DNA of 64,000 nucleotides from a virus: the IMG/VR virus record IMGVR_UViG_3300047160_036265; one strand, 5' to 3'. Under the pieces are notes generated by a model. It saw only the letters and a list, made by a program, of their open reading frames with translations, was not told where the DNA came from and did not search any database. Below, in pieces: positions 3,681 to 62,382 of this stretch. The position numbers were made by a program, and so were the translations under genes. How positions within the stretch are numbered: the first letter of the stretch is position 1; each line of letters begins with the position of its first letter.

Positions 3681-3769
3681 TGGACCGACAGAGGAATCGA
3701 ACCTCCTTCCCTCCTGGGAGGGGCCTTATGGCGACCCAGCCAGGCGACCTACCTCTAGTCGATCAGTCC
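3681..3769 (-). tRNA. tRNA, class II (long variable arm); anticodon uncertain
   Basis: Acceptor GGACUGA/UCGGUCC, T-arm GGAGGUUCGAUUCCUC, variable-arm hairpin CCCUCC-CA-GGAGGG; 89 nt. Confidence 0.5.
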
Positions 3770-12742: not shown

Positions 12743-12835
12743 CTCGTCAGGCAGGACTCGAACCTGCAACCTGGCGGTTAAGTTAAGGTCTGTCAGGACC
12801 AACAGCCGCCTGCTCTACCATTGAGCTACTGACGA
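12743..12835 (-). tRNA. tRNA-Asn(GUU)-like with about 21-nt insertion in the anticodon arm
   Basis: Acceptor UCGUCAG/CUGACGA, D-arm GCUC-AAUGGUA-GAGC, T-arm GCAGG-UUCGAGU-CCUGC; anticodon stem GGCGG/CCGCC encloses 28 nt (CUGUUGG plus a GGUC-CUGACA-GACC hairpin). Confidence 0.5.
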
Positions 12836-14864: not shown

Positions 14865-14951
14865 TCAGGGCGGCAGGACTCGAACCTGCATCCTCCCGGC
14901 GAAAAGGCCGGTTGCTCAGCCCGTAGGTCCGAAGACTTGAGCTACGCCCCG
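14865..14951 (-). tRNA. tRNA with hairpin insertion in the D-loop; anticodon unclear (UUU/UUC region)
   Basis: Acceptor CGGGGCG/CGCCCUG, T-arm GCAGG-UUCGAGU-CCUGC; D-stem GCUC/GAGC encloses 21 nt including GUC-UUCG-GAC; the anticodon loop folds as 6 or 8 nt. Confidence 0.45.
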
Positions 14952-22904: not shown

Positions 22905-22908
22905 CAAG

Positions 22909-22991
22909 CAGAGCCGTGAGGAATCGAACCCCATAGGCGTCGAAGGCCGGTGGATTTGGAGTCCACCTGATGTCCCAGCATCACCGGCTCT
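22909..22991 (-). tRNA. tRNA-Trp(CCA)-like with extra variable-arm hairpin (83 nt)
   Basis: Acceptor AGAGCCG/CGGCUCU, anticodon arm GUGGA-CUCCAAA-UCCAC, extra hairpin GGC-CUUCGAC-GCC before the T-arm. Confidence 0.5.
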
Positions 22992-40444: not shown

Positions 40445-40548
40445 TGCGGCGGGATGGATTTGAACCACCGACCTACGGGCTAATAACCCGTTGCTCCTTG
40501 AACACTCGCCCCGAAGGGTAGGTGTTGTCTTCGCTGAGCTACCGCCGC
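40445..40548 (-). tRNA. tRNA with about 28-nt hairpin insertion in the D-loop; anticodon loop UUAUUAG
   Basis: Acceptor GCGGCGG/CCGCCGC, T-arm GGUGG-UUCAAAU-CCAUC; D-stem GCUC/GAGC encloses 39 nt including CCC-UUCG-GGG; anticodon arm ACGGG-UUAUUAG-CCCGU. Confidence 0.45.
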
Positions 40549-40626
40549 ATATCGCCCGCACCGGCTGGCTGTCTGCTAATCCAGCGTTTATCTAATCACC
40601 CCTAGAGCGGAGCCATCCACGGCATT

Positions 40627-40663
40627 CGTGAGAGCTACTTCGCCTGCGATTGCTCGCAAGAGG
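40627..40663. repeat. repeat family C copy (GTGAGA..TCGCCTGCGATTGCTCGCAAGA)
   Basis: cgtgagagctacttcgcctgcgattgctcgcaagagg; related copies at 41481-41534 and 51385-51438. Confidence 0.5.
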
Positions 40664-40858
40664 ATAATCGCCCACGATCAGCCAGTGCATCCCCGCATTC
40701 CAGGCACCAACTTGAGGGCTTTCGCTTCACCGGGGCTTTGACCCCCGCAGCCACGGGCGAGTATCAAGCCCTGTGGCTGGGCTGCTCCTTCCGGCCTGAC
40801 CCGGTGCCACAGGTTTCTGTCCAGACAGCGATTTAACTCAACTGCGCCGGCACAGAAG

Positions 40859-40952
40859 TACGGAGGGATGGAGTTGAACCACCGACCCTTAGTGCGCTGA
40901 CAAGGTTGCCCTCGCCCCGCTTTCCAATGCTCTGCCGTTGAGCTACCTCCGC
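40859..40952 (-). tRNA. tRNA with about 22-nt extra sequence between D- and T-arms; anticodon unresolved
   Basis: Acceptor GCGGAGG/CCUCCGU, D-arm GCUC-AACGGCA-GAGC, T-arm GGUGG-UUCAACU-CCAUC. Confidence 0.4.
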
Positions 40953-41039
40953 ATAAGGCGGGTTGGGTATCCCTACCCGCCCCTTTCATGTAGAATCCAA
41001 TCTTCTCTTCTTGAGTCTTCTTCTTCACCCTCTCAGCGG

Positions 41040-41068
41040 GCTGGTTTTTCGTCTTAGCCCAGGACACC
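41040..41068. repeat. hairpin motif family B copy
   Basis: gctggtttttcgtcttagcccaggacacc. Confidence 0.6.
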
Positions 41069-41171
41069 ACTCCAGCTTATTCGGCCCGGATACCCTGTCC
41101 AGGGCGTAACAACCTCCCTGGAACATCCTGCCGTGACCCAGCAAGCTGGGAATTTCGCCTGCGTGGACTTG

Positions 41172-41200
41172 GGTTGGTTTCACCACTTAACCCAGGTGGG
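41172..41200. repeat. hairpin motif family B copy (covarying GGTTGG/TTAACC)
   Basis: gggttggtttcaccacttaacccaggtggg. Confidence 0.55.
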
Positions 41201-41480
41201 GTCTTTCACAAGCAGAATCAAACTTCTCATTCCCACAGGCAGCGGGGTTACTTACGAAGTGTCCCAATACATGGCTTGCGCCTACCTCCTGGGTTAAATC
41301 GGTGAAGTAGCCCCACGCCTGCACCGCCCAGCCCGAAGGCCGGGGAAATTAGCGGCTGGAGTTGCGGGTGGATTACCACCATGTTAGAAGGAGGGGTGGG
41401 GGCGGTCGATGGTTCGGCCTTACTGTGAAGCTCGGCTCGGTTCTCTACTGGCCCCCACACCCACGCGCCTGCGATATTAT

Positions 41481-41534
41481 GGCGTGAGAAGTGTGTCGCC
41501 TGCGATTGCTCGCAAGAACGCCTTTGCTCACGCC
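41481..41534. repeat. repeat family C copy
   Basis: ggcgtgagaagtgtgtcgcctgcgattgctcgcaagaacgcctttgctcacgcc, an imperfect palindrome GGCGTGAG...CTCACGCC with an inner GCGA-UUGC-UCGC hairpin; directly 3' of the 279-aa ORF. Confidence 0.55.
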
Positions 41535-50989: not shown

Positions 50990-51440
50990 ATATTCGGGCA
51001 GGGGTCTTTCTTTTGCGTTTGAAGTAACCCTGGCCTGCACCTACCCCCATTATGTATTGAAACCGGAGAAATATTCGGGCAGGGGCTTTCGTTGTGATTG
51101 AAGTAACCCTGACCTGCACCTTCCGGTTATGTTCTCGAATACGAGGGCGGGAGAAATAGTCGCTGCGAGTGTTTTTCAAAACCATTTTCTGAAGTAACCC
51201 GCAACTGCACCGTCCCGCCAAGTACCCCCGCCAGGAATTGAACCCGGCCTTCAACGTCCGAAGCGTTGCGTGCGATGCCGACACACTCCGGGGGCAAGAA
51301 TCTCTGGAGATATAGACGACCAGGGGCTTTTCGACATTAGTGGTGTTGAAGTAACCCTAGCCTGCACCTTCCAGAGAGTATTGGGGCGTGAGAAGTAGCT
51401 CGCCTACGATTTCTCGCAAGAACCCTCTCGCTCACGCCGA
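50990..51440. repeat. tandem array of four repeat-family-A units (about 85 bp each) with two embedded tRNAs and one repeat-C copy; candidate Y-RNA-like or tRNA-derived small RNA array next to rsr
   Basis: GAAGTAACCC-N4-CTGCACC at 51021, 51100, 51191 and 51348, each preceded by the GG(A/C)GAAATA(T/G)TCG..GGG..TTTC half; sits directly downstream (on the gene strand) of the Ro60-like gene. Confidence 0.55.
51223..51295 (-). tRNA. tRNA-Arg(UCG)
   Basis: Acceptor GCCCCCG/CGGGGGU, D-arm GUGUGUCGGCAUCGCAC, anticodon arm CAACG-CUUCGGA-CGUUG, T-arm GCCGGGUUCAAUUCCUGGC. Confidence 0.6.
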
Positions 51441-51441
51441 G

Positions 51442-51513
51442 TACCCCGTGCGGGAATTGAACCTGCTCTTTTACCTTCGGAGGGTAACGTGCTGTCCGGC
51501 ACACTCACGGGGT
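51442..51513 (-). tRNA. tRNA-Arg(CCG)
   Basis: Acceptor ACCCCGU/ACGGGGU, D-arm GUGUGCCGGACAGCAC, anticodon arm UUACC-CUCCGAA-GGUAA, T-arm GCAGG-UUCAAUU-CCCGC. Confidence 0.6.
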
Positions 51514-51569: not shown

Positions 51570-53483
51570 TTAGGCGATCTTGTACTTCGCCCGCAGGACT
51601 TCCAGCGGCGGCACTTCCTTGGCCTCGCCCTGCTCCTGCTCGCCCAGGCCCTCGCAGTCAGCGATGATGTTGACCAGCTTCTCCGACCAGCCGGACAGCA
51701 GGTGGGTCTGCTTGTCGGTCGGCTTCACCTGAGCCTGGCCGTGGCCGTTCAGGTTGATGCTGTACACCTTGCACTGCGCGTTGACCTTCTGGCGGTAGTC
51801 GGCGCACATCGACTGCACGCTCATCCCCTTGAAGTGGTCCTTGCCGCCGTGGCACAGGTTGGCGTTCCCCTGCGTGTAGCAGCAGAAGTCACTCATGATG
51901 ATGATGCGGTCAACGTGGAGCTTCTTGTCCGTGATGTCCTTGAGGCCCCACCACAGACCCGTCTCCGTGCCGCCGCCCACACCACCGCCGTAGCGGTTGC
52001 TGCCCAGGCCACCGTGGGTCTTCGGGTCGTCGCTCTGGGCGCACTTCTTCACCTGCTCGTGGATCGCCAGGCAGGTGTCAGCCTGGCTGAACGGCACCCA
52101 CACCAGCATGTCACCGAACACGCCGATCTTCACGCGACGGCCCAGCTTCTTCGCCAGGACGGCCATCAGCATGTTGCCGGCGTCGGCAACCACCAGCCGG
52201 GACTTGGCGCTCGTGGCGCAGCCCGTGGCCGAACCGGAGTTGTCCGTCAGGACCACCGTGATGCCCGGCAAGTCGGCAATGTTGTTGCACGCCTGGTCCA
52301 GCTTCAGGTCGATCACCGTCTTGGCTTCCGTCGTGGAAACCTCGTTCTTGGCGGTGAACCACCGGAACGGAAGCTGCACAGAGTCTTCCTTGCCCTGAAG
52401 CTTCTCGTAGACCTTGCTCCACAGAGCATCGCTGATCTTGGCCTGCTCGAAGTTGCGCAGGTTGCGGGTAAGGGCCATCTCGCCCATCATCGGGATGCAC
52501 AGTTCCCAGACTTCCTTGCTGGAACCCAGGTGCGACAGCACGTTCTCCCAGGTCAGACCGGCCAGGCGCAGGAAGTCCGGGGTCACGCCCAAGGCCGGGA
52601 GGCCCTGCGCAGCCACGTCCTTCTTGTCGAGGCCGAAGAACTTCTTCCGGGCCTGGAGCAGCGGCGACGAGTTACCGTCCACCACGCCGTTCACCAGGAA
52701 GTCGAACAGGCTCTTGGACACGGGCCAGCCCACGTCCTTGTTCTGCTCGTGTTCGCCCTGCTCGTCCTGCACCTTCACAGTGACGGTGCTGATGCTGCCG
52801 GCCTTGGCCAGCTTCTTGTGCTTGGAGCCACGGAGCATCTTCAGCAGGTCGGCGTAGTTCGGGCGCTCCGTGGTGTCGTACTTCAGGATTTCGTATTCCG
52901 AGAACCGGGCGATGGCGGCGCACAGCGCCTTGCGCAGCGCGTGCGGCAGCGCACCCTTGTGGCGTGGCTTCGAGCGCTGGTACAGGTGGCGGAAGGCCGC
53001 AAACACCTGGAGCGGTTCATCGGCACGGTCCATGATCCGTGGGCCGTACTTGGCCAGGAACGGACGGGTCTTCTCGTTCGCCGCAGCGACCACCAGCATC
53101 ATCTGCGGGGTGGTGCGCAGGCGCAGGCCCTCCGTCTTGTCGCGTGCCCAGGACGCGATAATGAACAAGTCTTCCGGGTGATCGCCCTTGGCGACCGCCT
53201 GAGCCGTCTCGATGACTTCCTGGGCCTGCTCGGTCAAGCCGACCTCGTTGACGATCTTGGACTCGATGCGCCCGACCGTGGTAAGCTCCGTGATGAAAGC
53301 TTCATAGTCACGGTTGGAGTCGTAATACTTCGGCTCGTTGAAGAACCCGCCGCCGATGGTGTGCATCAGCTTCACGGCAGGGTCGTTGATCTCGTAGGCA
53401 ACGCCTGGAACATGCTTGTGGGCCACCTGCTCCTCAGCAGCAGCCTTGTGGACATCCTTCTTCTCGAAAGCGAACTTGGACAT
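51570..53483 (-). CDS. rsr: Ro60/Rsr-like protein (TROVE + vWA domains)
   Basis: Start at MSKFAFEK, preceded by GGAGAGGAGAG. IGGGFFNEPKYY resembles the Ro60 GSEGGTYY segment; helical-repeat N-terminal region; C-terminal vWA with MIDAS ITVVLTDNSGSATG; about 640 aa. Confidence 0.5.
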   Translation of the reverse strand: MSKFAFEKKDVHKAAAEEQVAHKHVPGVAYEINDPAVKLMHTIGGGFFNEPKYYDSNRDYEAFITELTTVGRIESKIVNEVGLTEQAQEVIETAQAVAKGDHPEDLFIIASWARDKTEGLRLRTTPQMMLVVAAANEKTRPFLAKYGPRIMDRADEPLQVFAAFRHLYQRSKPRHKGALPHALRKALCAAIARFSEYEILKYDTTERPNYADLLKMLRGSKHKKLAKAGSISTVTVKVQDEQGEHEQNKDVGWPVSKSLFDFLVNGVVDGNSSPLLQARKKFFGLDKKDVAAQGLPALGVTPDFLRLAGLTWENVLSHLGSSKEVWELCIPMMGEMALTRNLRNFEQAKISDALWSKVYEKLQGKEDSVQLPFRWFTAKNEVSTTEAKTVIDLKLDQACNNIADLPGITVVLTDNSGSATGCATSAKSRLVVADAGNMLMAVLAKKLGRRVKIGVFGDMLVWVPFSQADTCLAIHEQVKKCAQSDDPKTHGGLGSNRYGGGVGGGTETGLWWGLKDITDKKLHVDRIIIMSDFCCYTQGNANLCHGGKDHFKGMSVQSMCADYRQKVNAQCKVYSINLNGHGQAQVKPTDKQTHLLSGWSEKLVNIIADCEGLGEQEQGEAKEVPPLEVLRAKYKIA

Positions 53484-53568
53484 GATGACTCTCCTCTCCA
53501 ACTCAGCAGGGACCAGAGATAATATCGGCAGGAGTCCCGGCCCATAACAATAGGGCCGGTAAAACGGT

Positions 53569-53593
53569 GAAGTAACCCCCACCTGCACCTTCC
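53569..53593. repeat. repeat family A copy upstream of rsr
   Basis: gaagtaacccccacctgcaccttcc. Confidence 0.55.
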
Positions 53594-61224: not shown

Positions 61225-62382
61225 CTAAATCCCGCCGTGGGGCTTTTCCGGTTGGGCGCAGCGCTGGAGATATTCCTTCCAGCGACCCCGCTCGAAGAAT
61301 TCCACGGCGTCACAGAACATGACGCCGCAGCGAGCGGCGAAGGTCTTGTCGGTGGTCATATCGCCCACCATGACCACCCGCCGGGGGTCCAGCTTGTATT
61401 TCTCGATCCAGTGGACGCCCATGCCCGGCATGGGCTTGCGACAGTAACAGGTGATGGGGGGAACACGGTGCGGGCAGTAGCCGATCTCGATGTCCACCCC
61501 CAGCATGTCGTTGGTGCGCTCGAAGCAGGCTACGGCGTCTTCGTGGGACAACTCGCCCTTGGCGATGGCCGACTGGTTGCTGGCTCCCAGGAGGCGGAAG
61601 GCGTGCCTCTCGAATTCCTTGAGGACTTCGCTGCGCCCGTTGAGGGTTTCCACGTCGTCGGGGTGGGTTGGCCATTTGTTGCCGGCGCGAGAGCGGCGCA
61701 GGCAGCCGTCGTAGTCCAGCCACAGGCCCTTGTTGTTGTAGCCGGTGGGGCGGCGGACGAAGGGCACCGTGGTGATGTCTGTGAAACCTTCGCTCTTTTC
61801 CGGCTTCTGGTAGTCCTTCCGGTAGGCGAAGAGGACGGCGGGAGGGAAGAGGTTGGGATCACGAGCCGCCTTGATTTCCTCTGGCGAGAGAATCTTGCCC
61901 TTCTTCTCCATCATGCGGGTGCAGGCGTTGTACTGGCTGTCCTCGATAGAGGTTCCCATGACCACAGCGTTGACTGCGAGGCCGTGCTTCCTGCCCAGGT
62001 CGATGAAGGGCTTGCGGCTGGCCCTGGTAGCGAACAGGTTGTCGAGAACGAACGTACCCTGCCCGCCCATGATATAGTTTTCCAGCGGGTGCAGAAGGTC
62101 GTCCACCTTGCCGCTCATCACGTCCCGGTTGAGACGGACGTAGCCCCGTTTAACGTAGTCCTGGGTCACGGTGGTCTTGCCGCTGGCCGGGTAGCCCAGG
62201 ACCAGGACGATCTCGGAGGGCAGGTGCCTCGACTTGGGAGCGGGGGAAGCAGCCATTTCGGTCTTCTTCTGGACGGTGGTGGTGGGTTTCGCCATGATGG
62301 TCCTTTGCAAAGTAAGAGTTGATGCTACTCGTCTTCCTCGTCCTTCTTGGGCGGCAGGGGCTTGGGCTGGACCTTCTGCCAC
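61225..62382 (-). CDS. polynucleotide kinase / 3'-phosphatase (Pnkp-like)
   Basis: N-terminal P-loop kinase VLGYPASGKTT; C-terminal HAD phosphatase motifs WLDYDGCL (DxDG), GASNQS, VMVGDMTTD. Confidence 0.6.
   Translation of the reverse strand: MAEGPAQAPAAQEGRGRRVASTLTLQRTIMAKPTTTVQKKTEMAASPAPKSRHLPSEIVLVLGYPASGKTTVTQDYVKRGYVRLNRDVMSGKVDDLLHPLENYIMGGQGTFVLDNLFATRASRKPFIDLGRKHGLAVNAVVMGTSIEDSQYNACTRMMEKKGKILSPEEIKAARDPNLFPPAVLFAYRKDYQKPEKSEGFTDITTVPFVRRPTGYNNKGLWLDYDGCLRRSRAGNKWPTHPDDVETLNGRSEVLKEFERHAFRLLGASNQSAIAKGELSHEDAVACFERTNDMLGVDIEIGYCPHRVPPITCYCRKPMPGMGVHWIEKYKLDPRRVVMVGDMTTDKTFAARCGVMFCDAVEFFERGRWKEYLQRCAQPEKPHGGI

Follow-up and report, generated by a model that had tools for sequence, protein, structure and literature searches.

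Can a tRNA gene of a bacterial virus be interrupted by a hairpin module of only 21 nucleotides (nt), and are all the hairpin-bearing tRNA genes of one virus of the same kind? These questions are raised by IMG/VR record IMGVR_UViG_3300047160_036265, a stretch of 64,000 nt of viral DNA which was analysed at its full length and is called the window throughout this paper. Four tRNA-like loci of the window, all on the minus strand, carry an extra hairpin, and they are named t1 (12743-12835), t2 (14865-14951), t3 (40445-40548) and t4 (40859-40952). A preliminary description, made from the sequence, had placed the loci at these positions, had counted 28, 21 and 39 nt inside the affected stems of t1, t2 and t3 and about 22 extra nt in t4, and had called the acceptor and T arms intact. 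All of these statements were borne out: the unconstrained minimum free energy (MFE) folds of the four loci are cloverleaves with a 7-bp acceptor stem, a canonical T arm and one extra hairpin each. The Rfam tRNA scores of t1 (59.8 bits), t4 (45.0 bits) and, with relaxed filters, t2 (40.4 bits) exceed the 29-bit gathering threshold of RF00005, and t3 scores 30.9 bits for a shorter alternative reading only. The loci are not assembly artefacts, as t1 and t2 were found identical in independent metagenome assemblies (L041, L042 and L054), among which L041 is a second assembly of the phage of the window. Samples in which this phage occurs are ENA ERZ27257208, ERZ27262824 and ERZ27264556 and JGI 3300012971 and 3300016341.

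Group I introns, as in cyanobacterial tRNA-Leu, are self-splicing ribozymes of at least 200 nt, and they have reportedly been found in tRNA-Asn and tRNA-Asp genes of Patescibacteria as well. To our knowledge, these self-splicing introns are the only ones with which bacteria and their viruses are credited; splicing of tRNAs by enzymes counts as a feature of archaea and eukaryotes. The preliminary description had offered small introns outside group I, permanent expansions and pseudogenes for the four loci jointly. No single one of these options covers all of them; an intron fits t1, expansion fits t3 and t4 better, and the four loci are more than one phenomenon. The best explanation of the whole, to which an even chance is given here, is that t1 would be a working gene with a hairpin module excised by proteins, and that t2, t3 and t4 would not contain introns.

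The interrupted tRNA-Asn gene t1

The t1 sequence of 93 nt folds into an MFE cloverleaf (z = -2.7) with the acceptor stem UCGUCAG/CUGACGA, the D stem GCUC/GAGC and the T arm GCAGG/CCUGC, and its anticodon stem GGCGG/CCGCC encloses 28 nt. These 28 nt had been read as CUGUUGG plus a GGUC...GACC hairpin, a division that counts GG twice; they really consist of CUG, a 21-nt insert and UUAA. By enumeration of every single deletion that leaves a 7-nt loop, the intervening module was located at 12782-12802, between G34 and U35. It reads UU-GGUC-CUGACA-GACC-UUAAC, its hairpin occupies 12787-12800, and, since UU is repeated there, its boundary is uncertain by as much as 2 nt and may lie 1-2 nt further 3'. 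The 5' exon (12803-12835) comprises the 5' strand of the acceptor stem, the D arm, the 5' strand of the anticodon stem and C32, U33 and G34; the 3' exon (12743-12781) comprises U35, U36, A37 and A38, the 3' strand of the anticodon stem, the variable loop, the T arm, the 3' strand of the acceptor stem and G73. Without the insert, a tRNA of 72 nt with the anticodon loop CUGUUAA is obtained, and ARAGORN in intron mode (-i), a check that had been proposed in the preliminary description, indeed reports t1 as Asn(gtt) with a 21-nt intron. The predicted exon junction is GGCGGCUGUUAACCGCC, the exon ending in GCAGGCGGCUG being joined to that beginning with UUAACCGCCAGG, and the acceptor stem is phage-specific (strands UCGUCAG/CUGACGAG).

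The identity of t1 was further examined by comparison with other tRNAs. The pair U1:A72 and G73 are as in the other Asn tRNAs of the window, unlike its Lys tRNAs. Among 185,579 species genomes of cellular organisms, searched with a pattern that permits anticodon loops of 7-37 nt, eight tRNA-Asn genes matched (in Chloroflexota, Phycisphaerae and Kofleriaceae); none of the eight is interrupted, and all have the same D arm as t1, a near-identical T arm and exactly GGCGG-CUGUUAA-CCGCC. By its sequence, t1 is thus a tRNA-Asn(GUU) gene, and a selected one whose product would make sense only once the 21 nt are removed. Other identities were considered. In bacterial mode ARAGORN miscalls t1 as Gln and its ortholog as Pro, and the Gln-UUG reading breaks a D arm or acceptor stem which the simpler reading keeps intact. 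A tRNA-Lys(CUU), formed from CU and CUUAA, is possible for the window alone; the relatives described below cannot yield it, U1:A72 and G73 speak for Asn, and the cellular twins are Asn genes.

A relative of the phage was reached via the protein adjoining t1, which is about 67% identical between the two phages, and the gene order is conserved. Orthologs of t1 with the same tRNA body and again a 28-nt 'loop' occupy the syntenic position in L045-L048 and L055, which represent one related phage, and in L053, a third lineage. With slashes marking the ends of the insert, the loop is CUG/UU-GGUC-CUGACA-GACC-UUAAC/UUAA in the window, C/AA-GGGU-CAGACA-ACCC-GCGAA/UGUUAA in L045-L048 and L055, and C/GA-GGGC-CAGACA-ACCC-GCGAA/UGUUAA in L053. 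Between the window and its relatives, the exons are identical at 71 of 72 positions and the insert at 10 of 21 (48%; Fisher p = 6e-8), and other syntenic tRNAs of the same phage pair are 81-97% identical. The 5' exon is identical in L045, and the sole change in the 3' exon is A to C in the variable loop. The insert measures 21 nt in all three variants and consists of a 2-nt lead, a 4-bp stem, a 6-nt loop and a 5-nt tail. Its loop is conserved as C(U/A)GACA and its stem covaries, GGUC/GACC versus GGGU/ACCC, with two pairs altered on both strands. The covariation among related genomes that had been named as a further check was found in the insert stem of t1, and compensatory changes were found in the hairpins of t3 and t4.

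The site of the insert differs between lineages, being 34/35 in the window (up to 36/37 by choice of boundary) and 32/33 in L045 and L053, and the canonical intron position 37/38 was rejected on this ground. CUGUUAA is the sole canonical loop that can be attained by one deletion in all three variants. Among hairpin-relative geometries, one alone gives the same mature loop in all three, with 2 nt left before the 4-bp stem and 5 nt after it; a 3+4 geometry gives loops that are canonical but unlike, CUCUUAA (Lys) for the window and AUGUUAA (Asn, with A32) for the relatives. Judged from these alignments, the insert is a self-contained module that sits at different phosphodiesters in different lineages. 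Only three variants of t1 were found in metagenomes of the Joint Genome Institute; no contig carrying t1 was found in IMG/VR, and a search of GenBank phages with t1 gave ordinary tRNA matches only. As for a repeat resembling miniature inverted-repeat transposable elements or repetitive extragenic palindromes, no other convincing copy of the t1 hairpin occurs in the window, in which six hairpins with a CNGACA loop were counted against 2.7 +/- 1.7 expected.

Proposed removal of the t1 insert and its alternatives

That the insert is removed at all is considered to be roughly a balanced proposition. If it is, the 21-nt module would be cut from the transcript and the halves rejoined to give the normal loop CUGUUAA. 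The cuts would take their position from the hairpin of the module itself and not from the tRNA body, the 4-bp stem being flanked by 2 nt on its 5' side and by 5 nt on its 3' side; cuts measured from the hairpin would explain why the module lies at 34/35 or at 32/33 and yet the same mature tRNA results. Since the distance of the cuts is constant to the hairpin and not to the tRNA body, an endonuclease reading the hairpin is proposed, with the conserved C(U/A)GACA loop as its obvious putative recognition element. The likeliest chemistry would be cleavage by a protein endonuclease, after which the ends are healed and ligated as in RNA repair, with enzymes supplied by the phage or the host. Among the genes of the window is one for a polynucleotide kinase/3'-phosphatase with an N-terminal kinase and a C-terminal HAD phosphatase (61225-62382, minus strand; Pfam AAA_33, PNK3P and HAD and, as a partial match, NCBIfam TIGR01663), which is a possible end-healing enzyme, and an RNA ligase is encoded by a distantly related huge phage.

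Two known systems resemble this scheme. The cut-heal-seal pathway of archaeal and eukaryal tRNA introns, which depends on EndA or Sen endonucleases together with RtcB or Trl1, would be the most plausible chemistry for t1; those introns, too, are short inserts of the anticodon loop which must be removed with nucleotide precision. Unlike them, t1 has no bulge-helix-bulge (BHB) motif, is not interrupted at 37/38 and belongs to a bacterial virus, and the differing position of the insert between t1 orthologs argues against measuring from the tRNA body. During infection by phage T4, the anticodon loop of tRNA-Lys is cleaved by PrrC and repaired by Pnkp and Rnl1, and T4-type Pnkp is a phage relative of the healing domains of Trl1. 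As proposed for t1, an anticodon loop is broken there and resealed by phage enzymes, and a Pnkp-type gene lies in the window; unlike t1, the T4 case is a single nick inflicted by the host from which nothing is removed, and an Rnl-type ligase was not found in the window.

Several points weigh against the excision of the t1 insert by proteins. Both the removal and its mechanism are derived by us from the logic of the sequences. The three variants amount to effectively two independent lineages, so the rule that the hairpin sets the cuts comes from one comparison. The approximately 50 window open reading frames (ORFs) scanned with Pfam, NCBIfam and PHROG yielded neither an RNA ligase nor a splicing endonuclease, RtcB or Tpt1. 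In the window variant the anticodon pairs with the insert (GUU/AAC), which is not the case in the relatives. Two other, uninterrupted tRNA-Asn(GUU) genes are present in the window, and t1 would therefore be dispensable for decoding. Finally, related phages tolerate permanent hairpins in many tRNAs.

The last two points lead to the explanation that survives best among the rivals, namely that nothing is spliced and all four loci, including t1, are permanently expanded tRNA-like non-coding RNAs which function with the hairpin retained, as scaffolds, decoys for host nucleases that target tRNAs, ligands of synthetases or of Ro60, or processing signals. The redundancy of t1 with two normal Asn tRNAs speaks for this, and the clade is full of tRNAs that keep a variable-arm hairpin (Trp, Cys, Asn, Lys, Phe, Met and Ile). 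The anticodon arms of tRNA-like genes in L003, L006 and L036 have been replaced by long hairpins, an armless tRNA-like RNA lies at 27586-27665 of the window, and a TROVE/Ro60 gene is present there, with a weak YrlA-like match in a related island. The details of t1 are harder to reconcile with retention. An expanded loop that worked as such should retain its geometry, yet the GUU triplet precedes the hairpin in one lineage and follows it in the other, and conservation of the insert is only 48%; all seven nucleotides of the canonical loop are retained and one deletion of 21 nt restores CUGUUAA, which is unexplained unless the loop is reconstituted; and none of the four loci matches YrlA or Y RNA. 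Permanent expansion of all four loci is accordingly viewed as unlikely, although it deserves serious attention.

The four loci might also be pseudogenes, that is, tRNA genes inactivated by small hairpin insertions and now decaying. This would suit t2, which lacks a counterpart in the relative and whose anticodon loop measures 8 nt. A hairpin element of about 50 nt is moreover present in three copies in the window, two of which are absent from the orthologous sites of L049, a relative of the window phage; hairpin insertions therefore do occur in these RNA islands. Decay would be expected to hit the exons too, yet only the insert of t1 diverges, its exons being identical at 71 of 72 positions next to a protein that is about 67% identical and among other tRNAs at 81-97%, and t3 and t4 are about 97% identical to their counterparts, with compensatory changes. 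The pattern of conservation thus disfavours pseudogenes for t1, t3 and t4, and as an account of all four loci this explanation is improbable.

Removal of the t1 insert as an archaeal or eukaryal BHB intron, by an endonuclease of the EndA/Sen kind whose gene would lie in another part of the phage genome, is very improbable. A length of 21 nt is typical of archaeal tRNA introns, and the GUU/AAC pairing of the window variant recalls many such precursors, but neither variant can be drawn, whatever boundary is chosen, as two opposite-strand 3-nt bulges 4 bp apart with the splice sites in the bulges: the window variant forms an internal loop CU/UUAA, a 3-bp helix and a UU bulge on the 3' strand only, and the L045 variant forms only the hairpin. 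The sites 34/35 and 32/33 are not 37/38, the surrounding genes are of bacterial type (DNA polymerase III alpha and NAD-dependent ligase), and the ORF scans revealed no endonuclease domain. RNA catalysis, by self-splicing or by a small self-cleaving ribozyme, is equally improbable: although the known tRNA introns of bacteria and phages are self-splicing group I introns, which likewise interrupt the anticodon loop of bacterial-type tRNAs including tRNA-Asn, a 21-nt insert is an order of magnitude below the size of group I or group II introns (a group I intron with its P3-P9 core usually exceeds 200 nt), its conserved bases are limited to the 6-nt loop, and no ribozyme, intron or other Rfam family besides tRNA matched t1 even at E <= 10.

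Protein-dependent excision of a hairpin module is thus preferred for t1, which is, on the comparisons made here, a strong candidate for a mini-intron of neither the group I nor the BHB type in a phage tRNA. The wider claim that follows from it is put forward tentatively and with more doubt than confidence: that a bacterial virus would possess protein-dependent tRNA splicing, acting on a hairpin mini-intron which is recognised through its own stem-loop, is cut 2 nt 5' and 5 nt 3' of its stem and occupies varied phosphodiesters. Such an intron might move at the level of RNA, and it might hold the tRNA inactive until phage or repair enzymes mature it. If true, it would be the first enzyme-catalysed tRNA splicing outside group I in the bacterial world, with a splice-site rule unlike both the BHB rule and the eukaryotic rule of measuring from the tRNA body. 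The case is minimal and tractable, with a 93-nt substrate, a 21-nt insert and natural variants in which the insert is shifted by 2 nt and the mature product is unchanged; because two natural variants move the insert and keep the product constant, the rule of cuts measured from the hairpin can be tested. Confirmation would tie phage RNA-repair enzymes to tRNA maturation, would bear on the origin of Trl1-type pathways, and would show that genes of this type are misassigned when tRNA finders are used in bacterial mode.

Hairpin insertions had been called unusual for bacterial or phage tRNAs in the preliminary description, and this holds, yet unexplained tRNA introns of huge phages have already been reported (PMC6784885). 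The tRNAs of Lak megaphages carry 'enigmatic' introns, and phage tRNA introns were stated there as not previously described; in one example a 93-nt insert lies at 37/38 of tRNA-Tyr, one intron may encode a tRNA, and the introns are conserved across samples and cannot be classified by Rfam (Devoto et al., 2019; PMC6784885). Like t1, they are tool-predicted inserts in the anticodon loop of tRNAs of very large phages, with no mechanism explained, and t1 answers to the general description of a Lak-type intron. Compared by description only, t1 differs from the Lak example in size and position, its insert being a 21-nt hairpin at 34/35 or 32/33 of tRNA-Asn in a GC-rich, unrelated lineage, and, unlike the Lak introns, it comes with comparative evidence for cuts defined by a hairpin. 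A survey of huge phages from 2020 does not mention introns, and full-text literature searches found no mechanism for tRNA introns of huge phages published since the Lak report.

The loci t2, t3 and t4 and the 1-kb non-coding block

The locus t2 (14865-14951) is tRNA-like. Its D stem GCUC/GAGC encloses 21 nt with the hairpin GUC-UUCG-GAC at 14927-14936, and its anticodon loop CCUUUUCG has 8 nt, or 6 nt if C:G closes. It was missed by the Rfam scan of the whole window and was scored once the speed filters were relaxed, and the MFE fold agrees with the tRNA-like reading. Readings as Leu-GAG (the ARAGORN default) or as Lys-UUU with a 22-nt intron were rejected, as they break the D arm or the acceptor stem. 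The locus is identical in L041 and absent from the syntenic site of the relative L045, and it is probably a lineage-specific derivative that does not decode. A young tRNA-like RNA and a decaying copy, the pseudogene proposed earlier, are both compatible with its aberrant anticodon loop and with the lack of an ortholog in the relative.

In t3 (40445-40548), a reading of 104 nt has a perfect 7-bp acceptor stem, U8-A9 and the D stem GCUC/GAGC, with a 39-nt D loop that contains a 26-nt hairpin capped by UUCG (40501-40526). ARAGORN and Rfam report a poorer reading of 68-69 nt inside the locus, and interpretations as a 69-nt Asn-AUU (the ARAGORN default) or as Asn-GUU with a 14-nt intron break the D arm or the acceptor stem. 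By sequence, the anticodon loop UUAUUAG has 7 nt and the unusual anticodon AUU, and the D loop lacks GG; the anticodon stem and T loop appear initiator-like in the light of general tRNA knowledge. The locus is about 97% identical in L049, where the D-loop hairpin shows a compensatory change from A:U to G:C.

The extra nucleotides of t4 (40859-40952; Rfam 45 bits and MFE fold) lie in its anticodon arm (40889-40927), which is the hairpin UUGG-AAA-GCG-G-GGCGAGG-GCAA-CCUUGUC-AG-CGC-A-CUAA; the 4-bp stem UUGG/CUAA encloses 31 nt, which form a hairpin with a GNRA cap. In L049 the distal stem is changed on both strands; the cap remains of the GNRA type (GUAA for GCAA), and the remainder is retained. 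On sequence, no single deletion in t4 yields a canonical anticodon loop or a loop with U33. Because of these loop features of t3 and t4, and because their hairpins are kept by compensatory changes, both are read as tRNA-derived modules with permanent expansions. They are probably conserved, covarying tRNA-like modules that do not decode, and would probably serve either as handles by which RNase P and RNase Z process the flanking RNAs or as protein-binding scaffolds resembling Y RNAs.

Both loci belong to a conserved block of about 1 kb on the minus strand (40445-41470), which has no credible ORF and holds t4, a hairpin resembling helix 8 of the signal recognition particle (SRP) RNA, and t3. 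In the alignment to L049/L050, the relative in which this block was found, its identity is 85.7% over 1039 columns, two insertions specific to the window included, and elsewhere the sequences are near-identical. No Rfam family beyond tRNA and a partial Archaea_SRP was detected in the block; Y RNA, SRP RNA, RNase P, tmRNA and large ornate RNA were considered for it, and none scored above threshold. The SRP-like hairpin at 40771-40812 (minus strand), CCUGUGGC-ACC-GGGUCAGGCCGGAAGGAGCAGCCC-A-GCCACAGG, matches the protein-binding domain of SRP RNA, helix 8; it scores 25.5 bits against Archaea_SRP, with a gathering threshold of 96.5 and a local E of about 1e-3, and is conserved in L049. It was rejected as a full SRP RNA, of which only helix 8 matches and the remainder is absent. 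The 5' part of the block, about 520 nt (40953-41470), gave no Rfam match, ends in a GC-rich hairpin just before t4, and is probably one or more novel structured RNAs.

Y RNAs and other tRNA mimics (YrlA, Yrn1, the tRNA-like domain of tmRNA and the stable RNAs of T4) are the known RNAs closest in design to t3, t4 and the RNA at 27586-27665: common to them are tRNA-like acceptor, T and D features together with either a substituted anticodon region or an enlarged D region, and here, too, the genome encodes a Ro60/TROVE protein (51570-53588, minus strand; Pfam TROVE, 5.5e-23). Bacterial proteins of the TROVE/Ro60 type have tRNA-like Y RNAs as ligands, the 'anticodon arm' of Yrn1 is closed and its loop has 6 nt, and Y RNAs are recognized by the motif GNCGAAN0-1G and by lying on the strand of the Ro60 gene, no more than about 4 kb away from it (PMC4201824). 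The motif is only approximated in t3, as AGCGAAG. The YrlA and Y_RNA models gave no match to t2, t3 or t4 at E <= 5-10, and about 11 kb separate t3 and t4 from the TROVE gene, compared with the 4 kb of the criterion; these three loci were rejected as Y RNAs on these grounds.

Genomic setting and accompanying RNAs

The window represents the island of translation and tRNA genes of a huge phage. Every credible gene in it lies on the minus strand, its GC content is 55-60%, and its tRNAs number 48 by ARAGORN and 45 by Rfam matches. Among the tRNAs are genes for EF-Tu, the ribosomal proteins L7/L12 and S12 and an RbfA-like protein; cysteinyl-tRNA synthetase, a class II synthetase (211-1563; a candidate AsnRS), a fragment of Trp/Tyr synthetase, a fragment of DNA polymerase III alpha and an NAD-dependent ligase are also encoded. 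One protein encoded in the window has an identical copy recorded on a contig of 669,797 bp, and relatives of its EF-Tu are found on IMG/VR contigs of 188-533 kb which are likewise packed with tRNAs. A planctomycete host is possible but weakly supported, the hints being one gene family common to Planctomycetota and a tRNA-Asn core common to Phycisphaerae and Chloroflexota.

Immediately upstream of the 1-kb block, a protein of 279 aa is encoded (41541-42380, minus strand), to which no Pfam, NCBIfam, PHROG, PDB or fold match was found. Searches for homologs and their gene neighbourhoods returned thousands of homologs, and the best matches with names are from Planctomycetota. In Limnoglobus roseus the homolog adjoins genes for Hen1, R2K and a Pnkp with kinase, phosphatase and ligase domains, and in a phage contig of 587 kb (L057) it adjoins tRNAs whose D loops hold large insertions, as well as a weak YrlA-like match. 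In two huge-phage lineages, genes of this family stand beside clusters of aberrant tRNA-like genes, and by these associations the protein is a possible partner of RNA repair.

Further hairpin-bearing RNAs, absent from the preliminary description, were found on the minus strand of the window. The tRNA-Trp(CCA) at 22908-22991 (84 nt; ARAGORN and MFE fold) has an extra hairpin in its variable arm and an ortholog with 90% identity at 3952-4034 of L045, and the tRNA-Cys(GCA) at 33655-33739 (85 nt; ARAGORN, with an Rfam tRNA score of 52.1 bits) has such a hairpin as well. Between tRNA-Thr and tRNA-Ile, an RNA of 80 nt at 27586-27665, identified by a custom scan for acceptor stems and T arms followed by folding, combines these two elements with one composite central arm and no anticodon loop; it is 84% identical in L055 (12622-12691), where the inner hairpin has been replaced. 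The same scan flagged 32830-32974, 30446-30594 and 3682-3764 (minus strand), candidates of 83-149 nt with a 7-bp acceptor-like stem and a T arm, for which no claim is made.

In the relatives, variable-arm hairpins are seen in tRNAs of L001 (13058-13141 and 17717-17806), L005 (6658-6746), L022 (4526-4611 and 6841-6926), L051 (11710-11800) and L070 (969-1063). The tRNAs so equipped, listed above by amino acid, are class I in cells. In their long variable arm they resemble class II tRNAs and allo-tRNAs, here on class I tRNAs, and this is not a feature of t1 to t4. The anticodon arm is a hairpin of 35-43 nt in tRNA-like genes of IMG/VR huge phages (L003, 2046-2155; L006, 3939-4049; L036, 6845-6949), and in L003 and L006 the sequence AGUACCC...GGGGAA beside the stem (an AGUA...GAA motif) resembles the loop-E or sarcin-ricin type. 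Four tRNAs of two other huge phages (L057, 7442-7564, 7599-7723 and 9095-9218; L009, 9730-9873) share a D-loop insertion of about 45-50 nt with the sequence CUUGGAC-N6-7-GUCCC ... CUUACAAAC, and two of the four keep the canonical loops CUCGUAA and CUAAUAA. Within the tRNA cluster of L057, 7739-7829 weakly matches YrlA, with 27.1 bits against a gathering threshold of 69. These accompanying tRNA-like RNAs suggest that huge phages employ the tRNA fold as a general RNA scaffold.

The hairpin element of about 50 nt mentioned above, CGUGRGC...CUUGCGAGCAAUCGCAGGCGA...CUCACG, is capped by GNRA and occurs at 40627-40676, 41483-41532 and 51387-51436 (all minus strand), always on the transcribed strand and in spacers of tRNAs or non-coding RNAs. 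The first two copies are those missing in L049, so that its presence varies between lineages, and it may be a small mobile hairpin. Hairpin gain is common in these RNA islands and therefore offers an origin for the features of all four loci.

Two further arrangements were observed on the minus strand. The tRNA-Arg genes CCG and UCG (51222-51513) follow the TROVE/Ro60 gene downstream on its own strand, beginning 57 nt away from it, in the usual place of bacterial Y RNA genes, and the D arm of tRNA-Arg(CCG), GUGC-CGGACA-GCAC, has the same form as the insert hairpin of t1. Adjacent genes for a ThiF/E1-like protein and a JAB-domain protein (43049-44996), a pairing that is repeated in L049 and L057, look like a phage module for ubiquitin-like conjugation and deconjugation.

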